Shown here in pieces: positions 1-64,000 of a stretch of 64,000 nt of DNA. The notes under the pieces were generated by a model that ran no database searches, had not been told where the DNA came from, and saw nothing but the letters and a program-made list of their open reading frames with translations. Numbering within the stretch: position 1 is the first letter of the stretch; every line of letters starts with the position of its first letter. A program made the translations under genes and the position numbers. Origin of the DNA: Podarcis gaigeae. Taxonomy: Eukaryota. The DNA lies in NCBI GenBank assembly GCA_964106915.2, contig OZ066914.1; one strand, written 5' to 3'.

Positions 1-2030
1 AGTGCAGACCACTGTTAACAATGTGTGGGAAGGGGGTTTGGGCTTGAATAAATTGCTTTCCCAGTAATAATCGAAAGAGCCCACCTTTGGAGGAGCATGT
101 TCAAGCATTCACATCTTGATTTTTCCAACTACATTAAGACTTGTTCTTGTAGAAAAAAAATTAGCCTCATGGAGGGGGGGAAGAGCCTGGATCTTCCCAA
201 ATGCTGTGATTTCCCCCTCTGTTTAAAAACTGAGGAATAGCAGAGGTGGTGTTGCTATTTTCAAAAGTACATCCAAGGCACAGTAACAGATTTCCAATTA
301 AGATACATTTCTCTTGCTCACCCATAATCTATTTGTAATGCTTTTTACAATATTTTAATGCACTCTGCCACACTAACTTGTAAATAATAAATACACGCTT
401 CGTATACTTCAGGAAAAAGTCTGCACACAGCCCTCCTTGCAAATAGCAAACAGCCGGCCTGCTAATGAGTTCAGATTCATTTTCATTTTATTGATTGCCA
501 TAAGCTTAGGTAGGTAATGGAAAAGATCCAATATGCAGCTGATATCGCCCCTGACATGGCATGACAATTGCAAACCTGAAAGTGCATTCTTAATAATAAG
601 GGGAAATCTGACAACCTACCGAGCATGTCCTCAAAGCTTATGCGTTTCAAACGCCAGGTTGCCAGAAACAAGTGTGCAACCTTGCGGTGTTCTTGGAGGA
701 AGCAGGGAGCTTTTTAATCCTTAAAAACAGGTGGCAATTATGATTACTCTTCTTCCTGACTGCTAAGATACTGTAGTTAGGAACAAAGGCTGTTTAATGA
801 TATTCGATTCTTGTCTGGAAATAATACAGTTCAATAGGAGGAAGCCTTTACTTACACAGAGTGCACTCCTATTCCCAGTTAACTTTATTATTGGGAGCAG
901 AGTTGTGCTCTTCATTAGCCTCTTTGAAATGACCTTCTGGTGGACATCTCAGATCCATAAAAAAGGGCAGCTTCGTGGTGTGACTGGCATATGCTTGCAG
1001 GCGCCATATTGGGGGAGTGGGGGGAGAATATAACTTGTCTAAAATGCTCTTCCTCAAAATATGCAGTGACAGAAAACTCAGGGGAACTTCCCCCGAAAGA
1101 CAAGTTCCAGTAAAAGCATTGTCGCTTCTTATACAAGGGAATCCTTTTCTAAGGTGTCCCCGATGATTAGCTGAGCCTCAGTATTGCAAATGAGGAAGGG
1201 CTTGACCCTAAGATTCACCATTTCCCATTTCCGGTGTGAGGGCTAAACATAGGCTTTTGAAGAGAAGCGATCCAAAGATTCAGGAGGTTTGAGGAAACTG
1301 CAAAACAGAAAAAGATTGGAGACTAATGAAAGCAACAGCTGGATATGCTGCCTCATGGTCCTGCACAACTTTTGGAAATTGTGGAGAAGAGGGTCACTGC
1401 ACAGTCCTTCCAAGCTGAGATTTCAAGACTATAAGGGAGGCATGCTTCCCAGTGGGAAACCGTGGTCTGAGCTTCAGGTTGGAACATGGTACCCCCAATA
1501 AAACTTAGATTGCTTCAGTAAGAGCTTGTCCATGAAGAATATGATATGATCATAAGCTGGGTTGGCGAACTTTTGACTCTCCAGATATTGCTACCAAGCC
1601 TGGCCAGTGGCAAGGGATGATGGGAGTTGTAGTTTTGTAACATCTGAAGAGCATCTGCTTCAGAGGTTATCTATGCAACTTCTCTCTCTCTCTCATCATT
1701 GAAAGATTAGAATGGGACTATGGAGCCCCAGGCCCACCCAGGGCCAAATGTGGTGATCCAGGTCTCTCTAACTGATCCTTGGATTCTCCCCAGGGCACAC
1801 CCCACAGTGTCCTTACAATACAGTTTGCCTTGGTGGCTGCCCAGTGACCAGCATTGTCCGTACTTTAGTTTCCAAATGTCTGACTGAACAAGAAGGTCTT
1901 AGCCCACTGGAGGAAACATAACAAAGAGGGAGCCAATCCAATCTCTTCAGTGAGGGAATTCCGCAATGTTGGAGCAGCAACAGAAAAGACTCTCTTGTGT
2001 CACTACCAACTGTACTCCTGATGTTGATAG

Positions 2031-2079
<49 letters not shown>
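2031..2079. repeat. (AAT)n microsatellite (tail of an L2-type 3' end)
   Basis: Direct observation; another (AAT)n at about 55908-55968. Confidence 0.95.
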
Positions 2080-2081
<2 letters not shown>

Positions 2082-4223
2082 TTATTTATATCCCGCCCTC
2101 CCCAGCTGAAGCCGGGCTCAGGGCGGCTAACAACAATAAAACAGTACAAAAGACTGAGAGGAAGTGCTCACCTGAGGATCTGAGCACCCGGGCAGGTTGC
2201 ATAGTTACCTTATTCCACACCTTTCATTTTAGTGCAAATGAACTGCAATGCACATGTAATCAGTTATCAATTGTTTGCATACTGAAAGCATCATAAACAA
2301 TAACAGTGAATACCAATTGTATTTTCTGGATTGATTTCTGTTCTAGACATCAAATGAATAAGCAAATACCAGCAATTCCCATTCCCATTTTCATCGGTAT
2401 TCTCCAACATCCCTACCCATAACACCCCCCCCCCCATTAATTCTCCATTAATATCTGCAGATGTGATTCTAGCAAATGTTTCCTCTGGATGGCAAAAACC
2501 ATGTACTGAATTGCAATAACAGTTTGTATCTAGTTTAAGTCATATTAATGAAATCCAAGGGCATGGCTAAGCGAAGTCTGTTAATTTCAATGGGCTGGCT
2601 TTGAGTATAGCTTAGTCATACACAACCTAATGTGAACATCTTTTAAACATCTGTATAAAAATGTTACTCATTTCTTGCCAGCAGCTATTAATCTCTCCCT
2701 CCCCTCCCCTTTTACTATGTTTGGTTTTCATTATTGTCCTGATTCTTTCAGTTTATTTGCTCTGAATTCTTTCTGTTTTATGCAGCCTTCTAGAGTGCTT
2801 TGGTAAATAGGTGTGCCATAAGCTATGAAGCAAATAAAGTGTTTAAATATTATTTTGCTCTTAAATCAGTTGGCTGAATGCAAGATAACATGCCATTTAT
2901 AAGTAAGTATTTAACTTCCAGAGTGTTTCTGCAGATGAGTAGGAGGACTGATTAAACAGTAAACCTAAGGTGGATTTTCAATTTTTCATTCAATCATGCA
3001 TGATTTAAGTAGCTTAATTTCCATGTTGAAGCATGTCTCTGGCTCCTGTCACTTTGAATTATAAATATGTCGGGGTGTCGACTATTAAAAAACACAGTAA
3101 ATATTACTTTGTGAGTGACATGCTAAATGCTTTACTATGCATTTCCATCCATAAGTAAATATGACACTGAGTTTTCATAGGCCACTGATTATTGATGACA
3201 CCGTGCCATCAAAATACATCCAGCAATGTCTTTCACACTTGATACAGTTATGCTAGCATTACATTAGACATCATATTGAGGAACAAACTTGTCTAAATAA
3301 AGACATCGAAAGATGAAGGTTCCAATCCTGAATACAAACCAGTCCAAGTAAAGACGTCAAAACAAAAGAATGAGATGCAAGAAAGAGATCCTTGCCTCTC
3401 CTCCTCTGAAGAGATAATCATTACCGTCTCTTTGGACACCAGCATCCCTCATCTCCAGTACAGTACATAAAATGCACTGATATCTACCAGGGAGCCATGC
3501 AGGAGAAAGGGAAGGTCCAGATGTATAGGGCAAATACGTTTGTTGCCACCATTCTACCTTTTGTATACCCTGAGAGATTGGGGGGGAGGGGGGCTCGTTT
3601 AATCTCACTGTAAACAAGTGGTACAGTGACACTAAAGTATTTCTATTTCTATGTTACTCTTAAAAGGCAATCCCCTGTTGCTCATGCAGCATTTAACAGT
3701 ACTGACTGCATGCCCTCTTCCTTAGCATTTGTTATTCCACACATCCTGTTTATGCTGTATAAACACACACACAAAAACAAAACATTTTGAAAACCAAAGT
3801 TTGGATCGGCAAATTATGGAAATTAATTACAGCAAAACTCTATAAACATTTTTTCCCTCTTGGGGGGACTATTTAATGGACAGTTATGGTCAATGGCGAA
3901 AGTGTTTTTTTGTTTTTGGAATTATTGGTAGATGGCTCGTCCACAAAGTAAGAATTGATCCCCTGATAAATGAAGTTCTTTCATGAGTAGTTTGAAGGAG
4001 GGAGTCATCAGACTGTGGGGCAAGGAACACCCCTTTGCATCTGCTTTGCATAAAGAAGCGCACAGGTTCAATCTATACAGGTGGGGTTGAGGGAGACCCC
4101 TCCTGGAGAGCCACTGCCAGCTGGTATAGACCAGAGATGGGTAATGTGTGTATCTCTCAATCTCTCACCATCCCTCACCTGGGTACATAGGAGCCAGCTC
4201 CTAGGGGTTGAGGTCCCTTTGTC

Positions 4224-12223: not shown

Positions 12224-12510
12224 ATTAAAAGCTTTCCTAAACAGGGCTGCCTTCAGATGTCTTCTAAAAGTCTGGTAGTTGTTGTTCCACAGAGCAGGTG
12301 CCGCTACCGAGAAGGCCATCTGCCTGGTTCCCTGTAACTTGGCTTCTCACAGCGAGGGAACCGCCAGAAGGCCCTTGGCGCTGGATCTCCGTGTCCAGGT
12401 AGAAAGGTGGGGGTGGAGACGCTCCTTCAGGTATACTGGGCCAAGGCCATTCTGAGCTTTAAAGGTCAGCACCAACACTTTGAATTGTGCTCGGAAACGT
12501 ACTGGAAACA
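12178..12510 (-). mobile_element. L2 LINE 3' fragment
   Basis: Peptide VRFRAQFKVLVLTFKAQNGLGPVYLKERL, plus the shared 3' UTR (ttgttggaagctgccc). Confidence 0.85.
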
Positions 12511-59399: not shown

Positions 59400-60294
59400 T
59401 ATACAGAAATTCATACAGTAGGATAAAGTGTGCATATGCAAGTAAAAATAACATACAAAATGCATTATATCAGAGGAAATCCCTTCGCAAAAACTTATTT
59501 TCAATAGGTAACATTGCATACAAAACTGTGTATGCCAAGAGAAATTTGCAACAAAATGCAGATGAATTTCTATGAGAACTTGAAAAAGAATCACAAAAGA
59601 TGAACCTCCAGCCTCAGCTAAAACTGGTTGATCATGCCAGTCTTCCTTGGACTGGAGTTTGTCTCTTTATAGCCAAATAACTTTCTATGAAACTGTAATG
59701 GATGAAGTACATTCCTGCTACCTATCTCCCTGTAACATGCGTGAACACACACACACACACACACAAAATTTGCTTTCCTTTGAACACTACCAAAAATCGG
59801 TGAAATAAAGTGAAGCCTACTTTTGAATCGTGGCATATAGCATCATTTAAGTGTTGACAATCATCCATTCACCTGGGCTATTTCCACCTGACATTTCTTT
59901 GGCGACAAACAAGCTACACAACAGTAAAGCTTGTCTGAAAGTTGTCACTATCTAATTGTCAGGTTGCGTTCCCATCAAACCATGCCTGGGCTATGGGATG
60001 TCATTCCCAACTCAAGAGCTGGAAATTATGCTCTCGGTTTTATTGTTCTGAAATCAGTGGCTGGAATTGGGATCTTGAGATTGAAACAGAGAGCCTGAAA
60101 TATGATATAGCATGAAGGAGGTGTGACTCTGGACAGGGGCTGAAGCACTGGAGGCTTAAGGGAGATTGGGACACTGCCCTACCAGATTCATTCTGTCCCT
60201 AGTCAGTTCCCCTGCCCCACCTGCTTTCATACTTGCAATCAGCCCAGGGGGTGGAGCTGTTTTTAAGGAAAATTGGCAAAAACGACACTGCTCA

Positions 60295-60399
60295 CATGGA
60301 TAGCCATATGGCCAGATTTTCCCGATTTCCGCCCAGAAACTGCTTCCAACTGCAGTGTTCCGGGTATGTCCAGAAAATTCCGGACATATGGCAACCCTA
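60295..60399. mobile_element. hAT (Blackjack-like) MITE remnant
   Basis: Ends catatggcaacccta, with a degenerate inverted copy (gatagccatatg) at the left end. Confidence 0.5.
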
Positions 60400-60692
60400 T
60401 CTAGCTTCTGGCTTCCTCCTCAGCCTCAGTGCCTTTGTAGACTTCAGCAGAGAGGAGGATAAGAACAAAACTAGAATCAGCTGGCATATCACTATTCCCT
60501 TCCTTATCTGAGGATGGCTCTTAGGACTAAGCACACACCAGTCAATGGAGCTGACATGGGTAGGTATCCAATGGCACCTGTTTTTGGTCCTCCCACTTGA
60601 TCTATTCTGGGATTAGACTTACCAAGCAGGAGCAGTGGACAGTTGAGAAATTGCAGTTGGGGGCAGAATTAATGTCATGTTGTTGTTGTTGT

Positions 60693-63600
60693 TTAGTCGT
60701 TTAGTCGTGTCCGACTCTTCGTGACCCGATGGACCAGAGAACGCCAGGCACCTCTGTCCTCCACTGCCTCCCGCAGTTTGGTCAAACTCATGCTGGTAAC
60801 CTCAAAAACACTATCCAACCATCTCGTCCTCTGTCGTCCCCTTCTCCTTGTGCCCTCCATCTTTCCCAACATCAGGGTCTTTTCCAGGGAGTCTTCTCTT
60901 CTCATGAGGTGGCCAAAGTACTGGAGTCTCAGCTTCACAATCTGTCCTTCCAGTGAGCACTCCGGGTTGATTTCCTTCAGTATGGAGAGGTTTGATCTTC
61001 TTGCAGTCCATGGGACTCTCAAGAGTCTCCTCCAGCACCATAATTCAAAAGCATCAATTCTTCGGCGATCAGCCTTCTTTATGGTCCAGCTCTCACTTCC
61101 ATACATCACCACTGGGAAAACCATAGCTTTAACTATACGAACCTTTGTTGGCAAGGTGATGTCTCTACTTCTCAAGATGCTGTCTAGGCTTGTCATTGCC
61201 CTTCTCCCAAGAAGCAGGCGTCTTTTAATTTCGTGGCTGCTGTCACCATCTGCAGTGATCATTGGGCCCAAGAAAGTAAAATCTCTCACTACCTCCATTT
61301 CTTCCCCTTCTATTTGCCAGGAGGTGATGGGACCAGTGGCCATGATCTTCGTTTTTTTGATGTTGAGCTTCAGACCATATTTTGCGCTCTCCTCTTTCAC
61401 CCTCATTAAAAGGTTCTTTAATTCCTCCTCACTTTCTGCCATCAAGGTTGTGTCATCTGCATATCTGAGGTTGTTGATATTTCTTCCGGCAATCTTAATT
61501 CCGGCTAGGGATTCATCCAGCCCAGCCTTTCGCATGATGAATTCTGCATATAAGTTAAATAAGCAGGGAGACAAAATACAGCCTTGTCGTACTCCTTTCC
61601 CAATTTTGAACCAATCAGTTGTTCCATATCCAGTTCTAACTGTAGCTTCTTGTCCCACATAGAGATTTCTCAGGAGACAGATGAGGTGATCTGGCACTCC
61701 CATTTCTTTAAGAACTTGCCATAGTTTGCCGTGGTCGACACAGTCAAAGGCTTTTGCATAGTCAATGAAGCAGAAGTAGATGTCTTTCTGGAACTCTCTA
61801 GCTTTCTCCATAATCCAGCGCATGTTTGCAATTTGGTCTCTGGTTCCTCTGCCTCTTCTAAATCCAGCTTGCACTTCTGGGAGTTCTTTGTCCACATACT
61901 GCTTGAGCCTTCCTTGTAGAATTTTAAGCATAACCTTGCTAGCGTGTGAAATGAGTGCAATTGTGCGGTAGTTGGAGCATTCTTTGGCACTGCCCTTCTT
62001 TGGGATTGGGATGTAGACTGATCTTCTCCAATCTTCTGGCCACTGCTGAGTTTTCCAAACTTGCTGGCATATTGAGTGTAGCACCTTAACAGCATCATCT
62101 TTTAAAATTTTAAATAATTCAGCTGGAATACCATCACTTCCACTGGCCTTGTTATTTGCAGTGCTTTCTAAGGCCCATTTGACTTCACTTTCCAGGATGT
62201 CTGGCTCAAGGTCAGCCACCACGCTACCTGGGGTATACGAGACATCCATTTCTTTCTGGTATAATTCCTCTGTGTATTCTTGCCACCTCTTCTTGATGTC
62301 TTCTGCTTCTGTTAGGTCCTTTCCACTTTTGTCCTTTATTGTGGAAATCTTTGTACGAAATGTTCCTTTCATATCTCCAATTTTCTTGAACAGATCTCTG
62401 GTTCTCCCCATTCTATTGCTTTCCTCTATTTCTTTGCATTGCTCGTTTAAGAAGGTCTTCTTGTCTCTCCTTGCTATTCTTTGGAAATCTGCATTCAATT
62501 TCCTGTATCTTTCACCATCTCCCTCGCATTTTGCTTGCCTTCTCTCCCCCGCTATTTGTAAGGCCTCATTGGACAGCCACTTTGCTTTCTTGCATTTCCT
62601 TTTCATTGGGATGGTTTTCGTTGCTGCCTCCTGTATAATGTTACGAGCCTCCATCCATAGTTCTTCAGGCATTCTGTCCACCAAATCTAAATCCTTAAAC
62701 CTGTTCCTCACTTCCACTGTGTATTCATAAGGGATTTGACTTAGATTGTATCTTACCGGCCCAGTGGTTTTTCCTACTTTCTTCAGTTTAAGCTTCAATT
62801 TTGCTATAAGAAGCTGATGATCTGAGCCACAGTCAGCTCCAGGTCTTGTTTTTGCTGACTGTATAGAGCTTCTCCATCTTTGGCTGCAGAGAATATAATC
62901 AATCTGATTTCGATGCTGCCCATCTGGTGATGTCCATGTGTAGAGTCGTCTCTTGTGTTGTTGGAAAAGCGTGTTTGTGATGACCAGCTTGTTCTCTTGA
63001 CAGAACTCTATTAGCCTTTGCCCTGCTTCGTTTTGATCTCCAAGGCCAAACTTGCCAGTTGTTCCTTTTATCTCTTGACTCCCTACTTTAGCATTCCAAT
63101 CCCCTATAATGAGAAGAACATCCTTCTTTGGTGTCACTTCTATAAGGTCTTGTAAGTCTTCATAGAATTGGTCAATTTCAGTTTCTTCAGCACAAGTAGT
63201 TGGTGCATAAACTTGGATTACTGTGATGTTAAAAGGTCTGCCTTGGATTCGTATCGAGATCATTCTATCATTTTTGAGATTGCATCCCAGTACAGCTTTC
63301 GCCACTCTTTTGTTGACTATGAGGGCCACTCCATTTCTTTTACGGGTTTCTTGCCCACAGTAGTAGATATGATGGTCATCCGAACTGAATTCACCTATTC
63401 CCGTCCATTTTAGTTCACTGATGCCCAGGATGTCAATATTTATTCTTGCCATCTCATTTTTGACCACCTCCAACTTACCCAGGTTCATGGTTCTTACATT
63501 CCAGGTTCCTATGCAATATTTTTCTTTACAGCATTGGACTTTCCTTTCGCTTCCAGGCATATCCGCAACTGAGCGTCCTTTCGGCTTTGGCCCAGCCGCT

Positions 63601-63794
63601 TCATCAGCTCTGGATCTACTTGTACTTGCCCTCCGCTCTTCCCCAGTAGCATGTTGGACGCCTTCCGACCTGAGGGGCTCATCTTCCAGCGTCATATCTT
63701 TTATATGCCTGTTGTCTTTGTCCATGGAGTTTTCTTGGCAGGGATACTGGAGTGGCTTGCCGGTTCCTCCTCCAGGTGGATCACGTTTGGTCAA
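60693..63794 (-). CDS. BovB ORF2: AP-like endonuclease plus reverse transcriptase (1033 aa from TTG; 1010 aa from the first ATG at 63725)
   Basis: Uninterrupted ORF with APE motifs (IGTWNVRT, LGISELKW, IIGDWNAK, IDYIL, SDH), RT motifs (YRTIALISH, QAGFR, FIDYAKAFD, GVRQGCILSP, RYADD) and the BovB-type C-terminus (RRIDAFELWCWRRLLRVPWTARRSN...KSRTRLND). Confidence 0.95.
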   Translation of the reverse strand: MTKRDPPGGGTGKPLQYPCQENSMDKDNRHIKDMTLEDEPLRSEGVQHATGEERRASTSRSRADEAAGPKPKGRSVADMPGSERKVQCCKEKYCIGTWNVRTMNLGKLEVVKNEMARINIDILGISELKWTGIGEFSSDDHHIYYCGQETRKRNGVALIVNKRVAKAVLGCNLKNDRMISIRIQGRPFNITVIQVYAPTTCAEETEIDQFYEDLQDLIEVTPKKDVLLIIGDWNAKVGSQEIKGTTGKFGLGDQNEAGQRLIEFCQENKLVITNTLFQQHKRRLYTWTSPDGQHRNQIDYILCSQRWRSSIQSAKTRPGADCGSDHQLLIAKLKLKLKKVGKTTGPVRYNLSQIPYEYTVEVRNRFKDLDLVDRMPEELWMEARNIIQEAATKTIPMKRKCKKAKWLSNEALQIAGERRQAKCEGDGERYRKLNADFQRIARRDKKTFLNEQCKEIEESNRMGRTRDLFKKIGDMKGTFRTKISTIKDKSGKDLTEAEDIKKRWQEYTEELYQKEMDVSYTPGSVVADLEPDILESEVKWALESTANNKASGSDGIPAELFKILKDDAVKVLHSICQQVWKTQQWPEDWRRSVYIPIPKKGSAKECSNYRTIALISHASKVMLKILQGRLKQYVDKELPEVQAGFRRGRGTRDQIANMRWIMEKAREFQKDIYFCFIDYAKAFDCVDHGKLWQVLKEMGVPDHLICLLRNLYVGQEATVRTGYGTTDWFKIGKGVRQGCILSPCLFNLYAEFIMRKAGLDESLAGIKIAGRNINNLRYADDTTLMAESEEELKNLLMRVKEESAKYGLKLNIKKTKIMATGPITSWQIEGEEMEVVRDFTFLGPMITADGDSSHEIKRRLLLGRRAMTSLDSILRSRDITLPTKVRIVKAMVFPVVMYGSESWTIKKADRRRIDAFELWCWRRLLRVPWTARRSNLSILKEINPECSLEGQIVKLRLQYFGHLMRREDSLEKTLMLGKMEGTRRRGRQRTRWLDSVFEVTSMSLTKLREAVEDRGAWRSLVHRVTKSRTRLND

Positions 63795-63897
63795 AACTCT
63801 CCACTATGACCTGTTCATCTTGGGTGCCCTGCTCGGCATAGTTCATAGCTTCTCTGAGTTCTTCAAGCCCCTTCGCCACGGCAAGGCAGTGATCCAT
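63781..63897 (-). CDS. Putative 38-aa ORF1/uORF of the BovB element (MDHCLAVAKGLEELREAMNYAEQGTQDEQVIVESFDQT*)
   Basis: Hand translation: ATG 6 nt inside the element's 5' end, stop at 63781-63783, overlapping the open 5' part of the ORF2 frame. A similarly short overlapping first ORF is described for C. elegans RTE-1. Confidence 0.5.
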   Translation of the reverse strand: MDHCLAVAKGLEELREAMNYAEQGTQDEQVIVESFDQT

Positions 63898-64000
63898 GAA
63901 GGGGAATTAATGTCATAGGGGGCACAAAGAGAGCACATTGGATGGAGCCCCCTAAAACTGGAGCCAACTCTACATGATGTTTCAAGTTCCTACTCCAGAC

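Follow-up and report, generated by a model that had tools for sequence, protein, structure and literature searches.

A Full-Length BovB Insertion in Podarcis gaigeae Is Likely a Dead-End Sibling Within a Family That Is Still Amplifying

The element found at positions 60679-63903 on the minus strand of the window (the whole stretch of 64,000 nucleotides of Podarcis gaigeae DNA analyzed here) is an ordinary member of the known RTE-clade BovB LINE family, which is still amplifying. It is highly probable that this full-length copy, inserted likely about 1 million years ago, has given rise to no detectable daughters and that its autonomous activity is likely weak or lost. Within the family it has the character of a leaf and is likely a dead-end sibling, not a current source.

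Anatomy and Identity of the Insertion

The insertion measures 3,225 bp and lies between two copies of an exact 13-bp target duplication, GAATTAATGTCAT, which the 64 kb window contains at exactly two places (60666 and 63904) and which can be extended on neither side (Table 1). Duplications of 11-13 bp were found in 48 of 55 scored full-length BovB copies, a range that includes the 13 bp seen here. The 5' end is complete: of 29 near-identical copies, 27 can be aligned from nt 1 onward, and 25 do so and finish at nt 3222-3225. The insertion also matches exactly the Tn-TA signature that section 3.2 of PMC13295347 defines for Podarcis Bov-B. A perfect 13-bp duplication, a complete 5' end and a CAA tail had been listed in an earlier note on this DNA, and all three were recovered. 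The description of the element as full length was equally borne out by the 3,225 bp between the duplications and by the match of both ends to near-identical copies.

The reading frame is free of stops over 1,036 codons, and 1,010 aa are counted from the ATG. It matches both Pfam PF03372 and PF00078, and the catalytic motifs are present and correspond to the majority state among homologues, in agreement with the intact endonuclease and reverse transcriptase (APE+RT) frame claimed previously. A structure model of the 1,010-aa protein (pLDDT 82) has a normal fold, and its best fold match is human L1 ORF2p. The nearest named protein is a UniRef entry of Podarcis muralis (95% identity over 998 aa); the identity is 77-79% with Varanus entries and 75% with Bos. 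The database entries themselves do not carry the BovB name, and the label is given because of the host range of these protein relatives, the tail and the signature. Taken with the size of about 3.2 kb and the single APE+RT ORF, these squamate and ruminant relatives, the CAA tail and the signature uphold the assignment to BovB made in the earlier note. A new horizontal transfer was considered and rejected, the nearest named protein being that of a lizard.

Table 1. Features of the BovB insertion and its flanks (positions in the window).
Feature	Position	Strand	Remarks
Target-site duplication, 3' side	60666..60678	.	13 bp, exact
CAA-type microsatellite tail	60679..60692	-	14 nt, immediately after stop codon
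Single ORF	60693..63725	-	1,010 aa + stop, ATG at 63725
Arg1000 (VHRV), likely tolerated	60726..60728	-	Arg in 18/95 homologues
Pro821 in FLG-x (FLGP), likely damaging	61263..61265	-	In the hairpin that aligns with YLG of L1
Reverse transcriptase domain, aa 574-820, YADD at 755-758	61266..62006	-	Pfam PF00078, E 4e-40
Lys613, likely tolerated	61887..61889	-	Two adjacent base changes; Lys in 8/116 homologues
Leu310, likely tolerated	62796..62798	-	Leu in 11/55 homologues
APE-type endonuclease domain, aa 73-303	62817..63509	-	Pfam PF03372, E 3.5e-16
Rearrangement hotspot, element nt 185-210	63694..63719	-	5' piece ends there in 14/36 rearranged copies elsewhere
5' leader	63726..63903	-	178 nt, without private change
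HDV-ribozyme-like pairing topology	63748-63895	-	P1-P4 match; descriptor written after seeing the sequence
Target-site duplication, 5' side	63904..63916	.	First base A in element orientation
Tn-TA target signature	63917..63928	-	Before duplication: T at -1, TTT at -12 to -10

The 5' leader could adopt a pairing topology resembling that of the HDV ribozyme. In RTE elements such a ribozyme would form a nested double pseudoknot with a catalytic C, and its cleavage would set the 5' end. None of 1,000 shuffles matched this P1-P4 topology, with a descriptor that was defined post hoc. A strict HDV ribozyme descriptor gave no hits on the leader, which has no G for P1.1, and Rfam returned no credible match at the BovB 5' end. 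The first nucleotide of the BovB copies lies 8 nt upstream of where the putative ribozyme would cut.

For host genes, the 147 stop-free frames of at least 78 aa in positions 1-60660 of the window gave no match above the cut-off of a Pfam family and a single weak hit, in a frame-based scan that would miss short exons. Separately, BovB-like ORFs of about 80% identity carry the database labels Staphylococcus aureus, Babesia ovata and Mycoplasmopsis (P0005, P0010, P0011, P0016). They lie on contigs of 2-3 kb and likely reflect contamination of these records by ruminant host DNA.

Private Changes and Their Likely Effect

Compared with its 29 nearest copies, the element has six private bases, five of them amino-acid-changing and one silent. 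The private residues are Leu310, Lys613, Pro821 and Arg1000. The earlier note had suspected that FLGP and VHRV were private substitutions, and rightly so: the common base was present at both sites in all 29 other loci. Natural homologues have the same residue as this copy at three of the four private positions, the exception being Pro821. This is the sole residue of the protein that is found at a frequency of 3% or less among homologues in a conserved column, where 102 of 120 homologues have Ser, 11 have Ala and 1 has Pro. It aligns just after the YLG of L1 and, in the structure model, is situated between the two strands of a hairpin, which we take to be the primer grip. According to the available text of PMC10830420, the primer grip anchors the primer. 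Judged from the alignment and the model, Pro821 likely impairs the activity of this copy, because it replaces the serine kept in most homologues. Counting against a weak or dead element are the other three private residues, which homologues tolerate, the intact catalytic motifs and ends, and the normal fold of the model.

Source or Leaf

LINE insertion proceeds by an endonuclease nick, tail-primed reverse transcription and a staggered second nick. By these same steps, the last of which would have given the 13-bp duplication, target-primed reverse transcription from a source elsewhere in a small side lineage would have produced the insertion at 60679-63903. The copy would then have gained its six private base changes, within a side branch that numbers about 20 copies, and would have left no daughters.

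Daughters were looked for in one haploid assembly, where rare new ones in other individuals or in the soma would be invisible. A 25-mer across Pro821 has 1,160 genomic matches when the base concerned is left free, and the proline is found in one copy, with no other carrier. The 27-mer with Arg1000 occurs at 18 places among 12,484; over the aligned part, the other 17 copies show an identity of 85-98.6%, and the haplotype is absent from all of them. A pattern characteristic of the side branch finds 21 other copies, about 18 of which are true sisters. The private change at nt 3176 was present in none of these 21, and that at nt 2639 in none of the 14 that span this position.

In a tree with an unsettled bootstrap, the copy belongs to a clade of six that is separate from one of 19, and it does not sit at the base of the youngest clade. 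The 19 copies of the main clade have 0-3 private changes each, and two main-branch copies are identical over nt 10-3195. The youngest main branch (L008, L020 and their clade) speaks for ongoing activity. Among 62 young full-length copies, a set enriched by best-hit searches, 44 have fewer private changes than the copy in question and 8 have none. In the unbiased subset from contig 1, which comprises 24 young full-length copies, 11 have fewer and 13 have more, placing it mid-rank and not among the old. The ratio of replacement to silent changes is 10:15 for changes present in at least four copies and 177:90 for singletons (p 0.015). Replacements are depleted among the shared changes, and therefore propagating lineages are filtered and leaves drift.

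It could be argued that the locus was the early source of the side branch and fell silent before its private changes arose. The copy has kept an older base at nt 1561 that is changed in seven of the eight branch sisters spanning it (5/5 in the tree set), which suggests early branching, and the 1-9 private changes of the individual sisters resemble its own six. However, no fewer than nine copies of the branch extend to nt 1561 or beyond, which gives any single one of them a low prior as the early source, and a source acting over time would have left daughters with some of the six changes, of which none has even one. We regard this scenario as improbable. Slightly less probable still is the idea of the earlier note, which saw in this copy a candidate active source: a competent element at work today, with daughters too rare or too recent for the assembly. 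The intact frame, motifs and ends speak for it, and so does the probable polymorphism of the insertion. Against it stand the lack of any genomic copy with its haplotype, the younger branch to which the youngest copies belong, and Pro821, since at this conserved position proline is present in a single one of 120 homologues and a single one of 1,160 genomic copies. Finally, it is very improbable that assembly errors produced the private changes, in which case the true copy would equal its branch: two of the six changes are adjacent and the bases of the element are known from the assembly alone, but the flank shows 0 differences from the X1 contigs (see below) over 430, 213 and 231 bases, and there are 0 private changes in other copies of the same assembly. 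The evidence as a whole thus favors a leaf over a source.

Age and Polymorphism

The private divergence of the copy is 6/3,225, or 0.19% (95% range 0.07-0.40%). With the rate implied by the available text of PMC13295347, 1.4% per 9 million years, the insertion would be about 1.2 million years old (0.4-2.5). The youth claimed for the element is borne out by this private change of about 0.2%.

The left junction was followed in contigs from four sequencing runs, two of which read through it as non-BovB sequence, while one stops at the junction and one has a hole. The first two come from organisms B and C (one study): their contigs follow the flank to exactly 60678 and run on for 694 and 614 letters past it, unlike the BovB tail. 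As judged from the left junction, the site would be empty in these related species. The contig from X1 (organism A, possibly the sample of the assembly itself) stops exactly at 60678, although the junction words are unique among 239 loci up to 60703, and this is best explained if the sequence forks there into a filled and an empty allele. We infer that the insertion is heterozygous in this same-species sample. In X3, a second sample of the species, the hole lies over the flank beside the junction. The earlier suggestion that the insertion is polymorphic is therefore probably right, as inferred from the left-junction contigs of B, C and X1, and the insertion could serve as a presence/absence marker. 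Further into the left flank, positions 60237-60480 contain short high-copy repeats to which hundreds of contigs align.

Copy Number and Comparison with Known Systems

Intact copies are common in this genome, which also weakens the case for this particular copy as the active source. The exact 3' 27-mer is found at 12,484 places and the exact 5' 27-mer at 981. Of 4,632 candidates, 40 were scored, and each of these is near full length with an identity of about 99%. A stop-free frame of more than 1,000 aa is present in 26 of the 29 other near-identical loci (27/30 with the copy at 60679-63903). On contig 1, 39 of the 86 other places with the 5' pattern are full length and 16 have an intact frame. 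Applied to the 981 places, the fraction 17/87 yields an estimate of about 190 intact copies genome-wide, as a lower bound, three further full-length copies having been found outside the 5'-pattern places. Judging by coordinates, two young full-length copies (L065 and L164, L085 and L182) were apparently interrupted afterwards, by insertions of about 10 kb and 2 kb. Two other loci, L013 and L060, have nearly the same target upstream and in the duplication, which suggests insertion into copies of another repeat.

Full-length Podarcis Bov-B copies have already been published. The accessible portion of PMC13295347 reports for P. muralis 52,041 Bov-B hits, along with 353 full-length copies that have duplications (Table 1 therein), and a Podarcis Bov-B tail of (CAA)2-6 (Table 4). 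Its element Bov-B_PMu likewise has a single APE+RT ORF, a CAA tail, a duplication starting with A and the Tn-TA signature; the copy described here differs, by comparison at the protein level, in four private amino acids and in belonging to a minor side branch. The canonical size of about 3.2 kb is shared with the BovB of ruminants and Varanus (PMC6036668, as far as its text is available), to which the 75-79% identical proteins of Bos and Varanus belong, whereas ruminant copies end in (CTGAA)n in place of the CAA type (PMC13295347, Table 4). For Anolis, the available sections of PMC5389967 describe full-length polymorphic RTE-clade insertions as common (1,782 reported) and RTEBovB itself as near extinction, with 8 full-length polymorphic insertions; in contrast, BovB is still amplifying in the genome described here. 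Among solved structures, human L1 ORF2p (PDB 8uw3, 9k6g) is the best match in both sequence and fold and uses the same insertion chemistry. It is about 20% identical and has 1,275 aa compared to 1,010 aa, and BovB differs from human L1 in lacking ORF1 and in having a microsatellite tail in place of poly(A).

Rearranged Copies

In 11 of the 86 contig-1 sites with a 5' end (L151-L161), the 5' piece is inverted relative to the 3' part. Seven of these 11 have an exact duplication of 10-15 bp around the whole unit, and in all seven the end of this duplication shares 2-7 nt with the inverted piece at the 5' junction. Junction overlaps of this type are a mark of twin priming in the available text of PMC2912911. 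When 5' ends played no part in the selection (the first 77 places, 60 of them newly retrieved and 17 from the other sets, giving 76 insertions), five copies were inverted (5/76). Further inverted insertions outside the initial set are L165, L176, L205/L206 and L208, where L205/L206 count as one event and L210 is left out as an older independent neighbor (89.8%, 28 bp apart). At another 25 loci among the 86 sites (in the range L067-L150), a 5' piece is joined to a 3' piece that runs in the same direction; duplications of at least 8 bp flank 20 of these loci. Each of the 25 joined copies has its own junction and therefore formed independently, except that two are copies of one locus. These bipartite 5'+3' copies resemble derivatives of the Bov-A type.

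The 5' pieces often end at nt 185-210, just past the start codon in an A/C-rich stretch, in 7/11 inverted and 7/25 same-orientation copies (p about 2e-12 against a uniform distribution over nt 30-800, for an interval picked post hoc). Tentatively, it may be that lizard BovB gives rise to 5'-inverted insertions by twin priming, and that the breakpoints of both the inverted and the same-orientation 5'+3' copies cluster at one point, about 190-205 nt along the RNA. No report of twin priming in BovB or in a lizard was found in the literature searched, the key papers on the topic being outside its reach, nor in the available part of PMC4476161. As far as the text of PMC4245944 is available, inversions in human cells occurred almost only for human L1, RTE not being among the elements tested. 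The accessible text of PMC5786205 notes that bipartite RTE derivatives are known, calls their cause unknown, and asks why only few LINE clades yield internally deleted derivatives, a question on which this pattern of inversions and breakpoints bears. If the interpretation is correct, a discrete 5'-leader RNA or an exposed site would be captured at insertion, and such leader capture would explain the frequent bipartite RTE derivatives such as Bov-A. It would also extend twin priming beyond human L1, to which it has been thought mostly peculiar.

Within the literature searched by title, we found no publication on a BovB retrotransposition assay. The many natural intact copies in this genome make a direct test of BovB retrotransposition possible. 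The single copy described here, one of many, matters little in itself; what matters more is a genome in which a BovB family is still amplifying.
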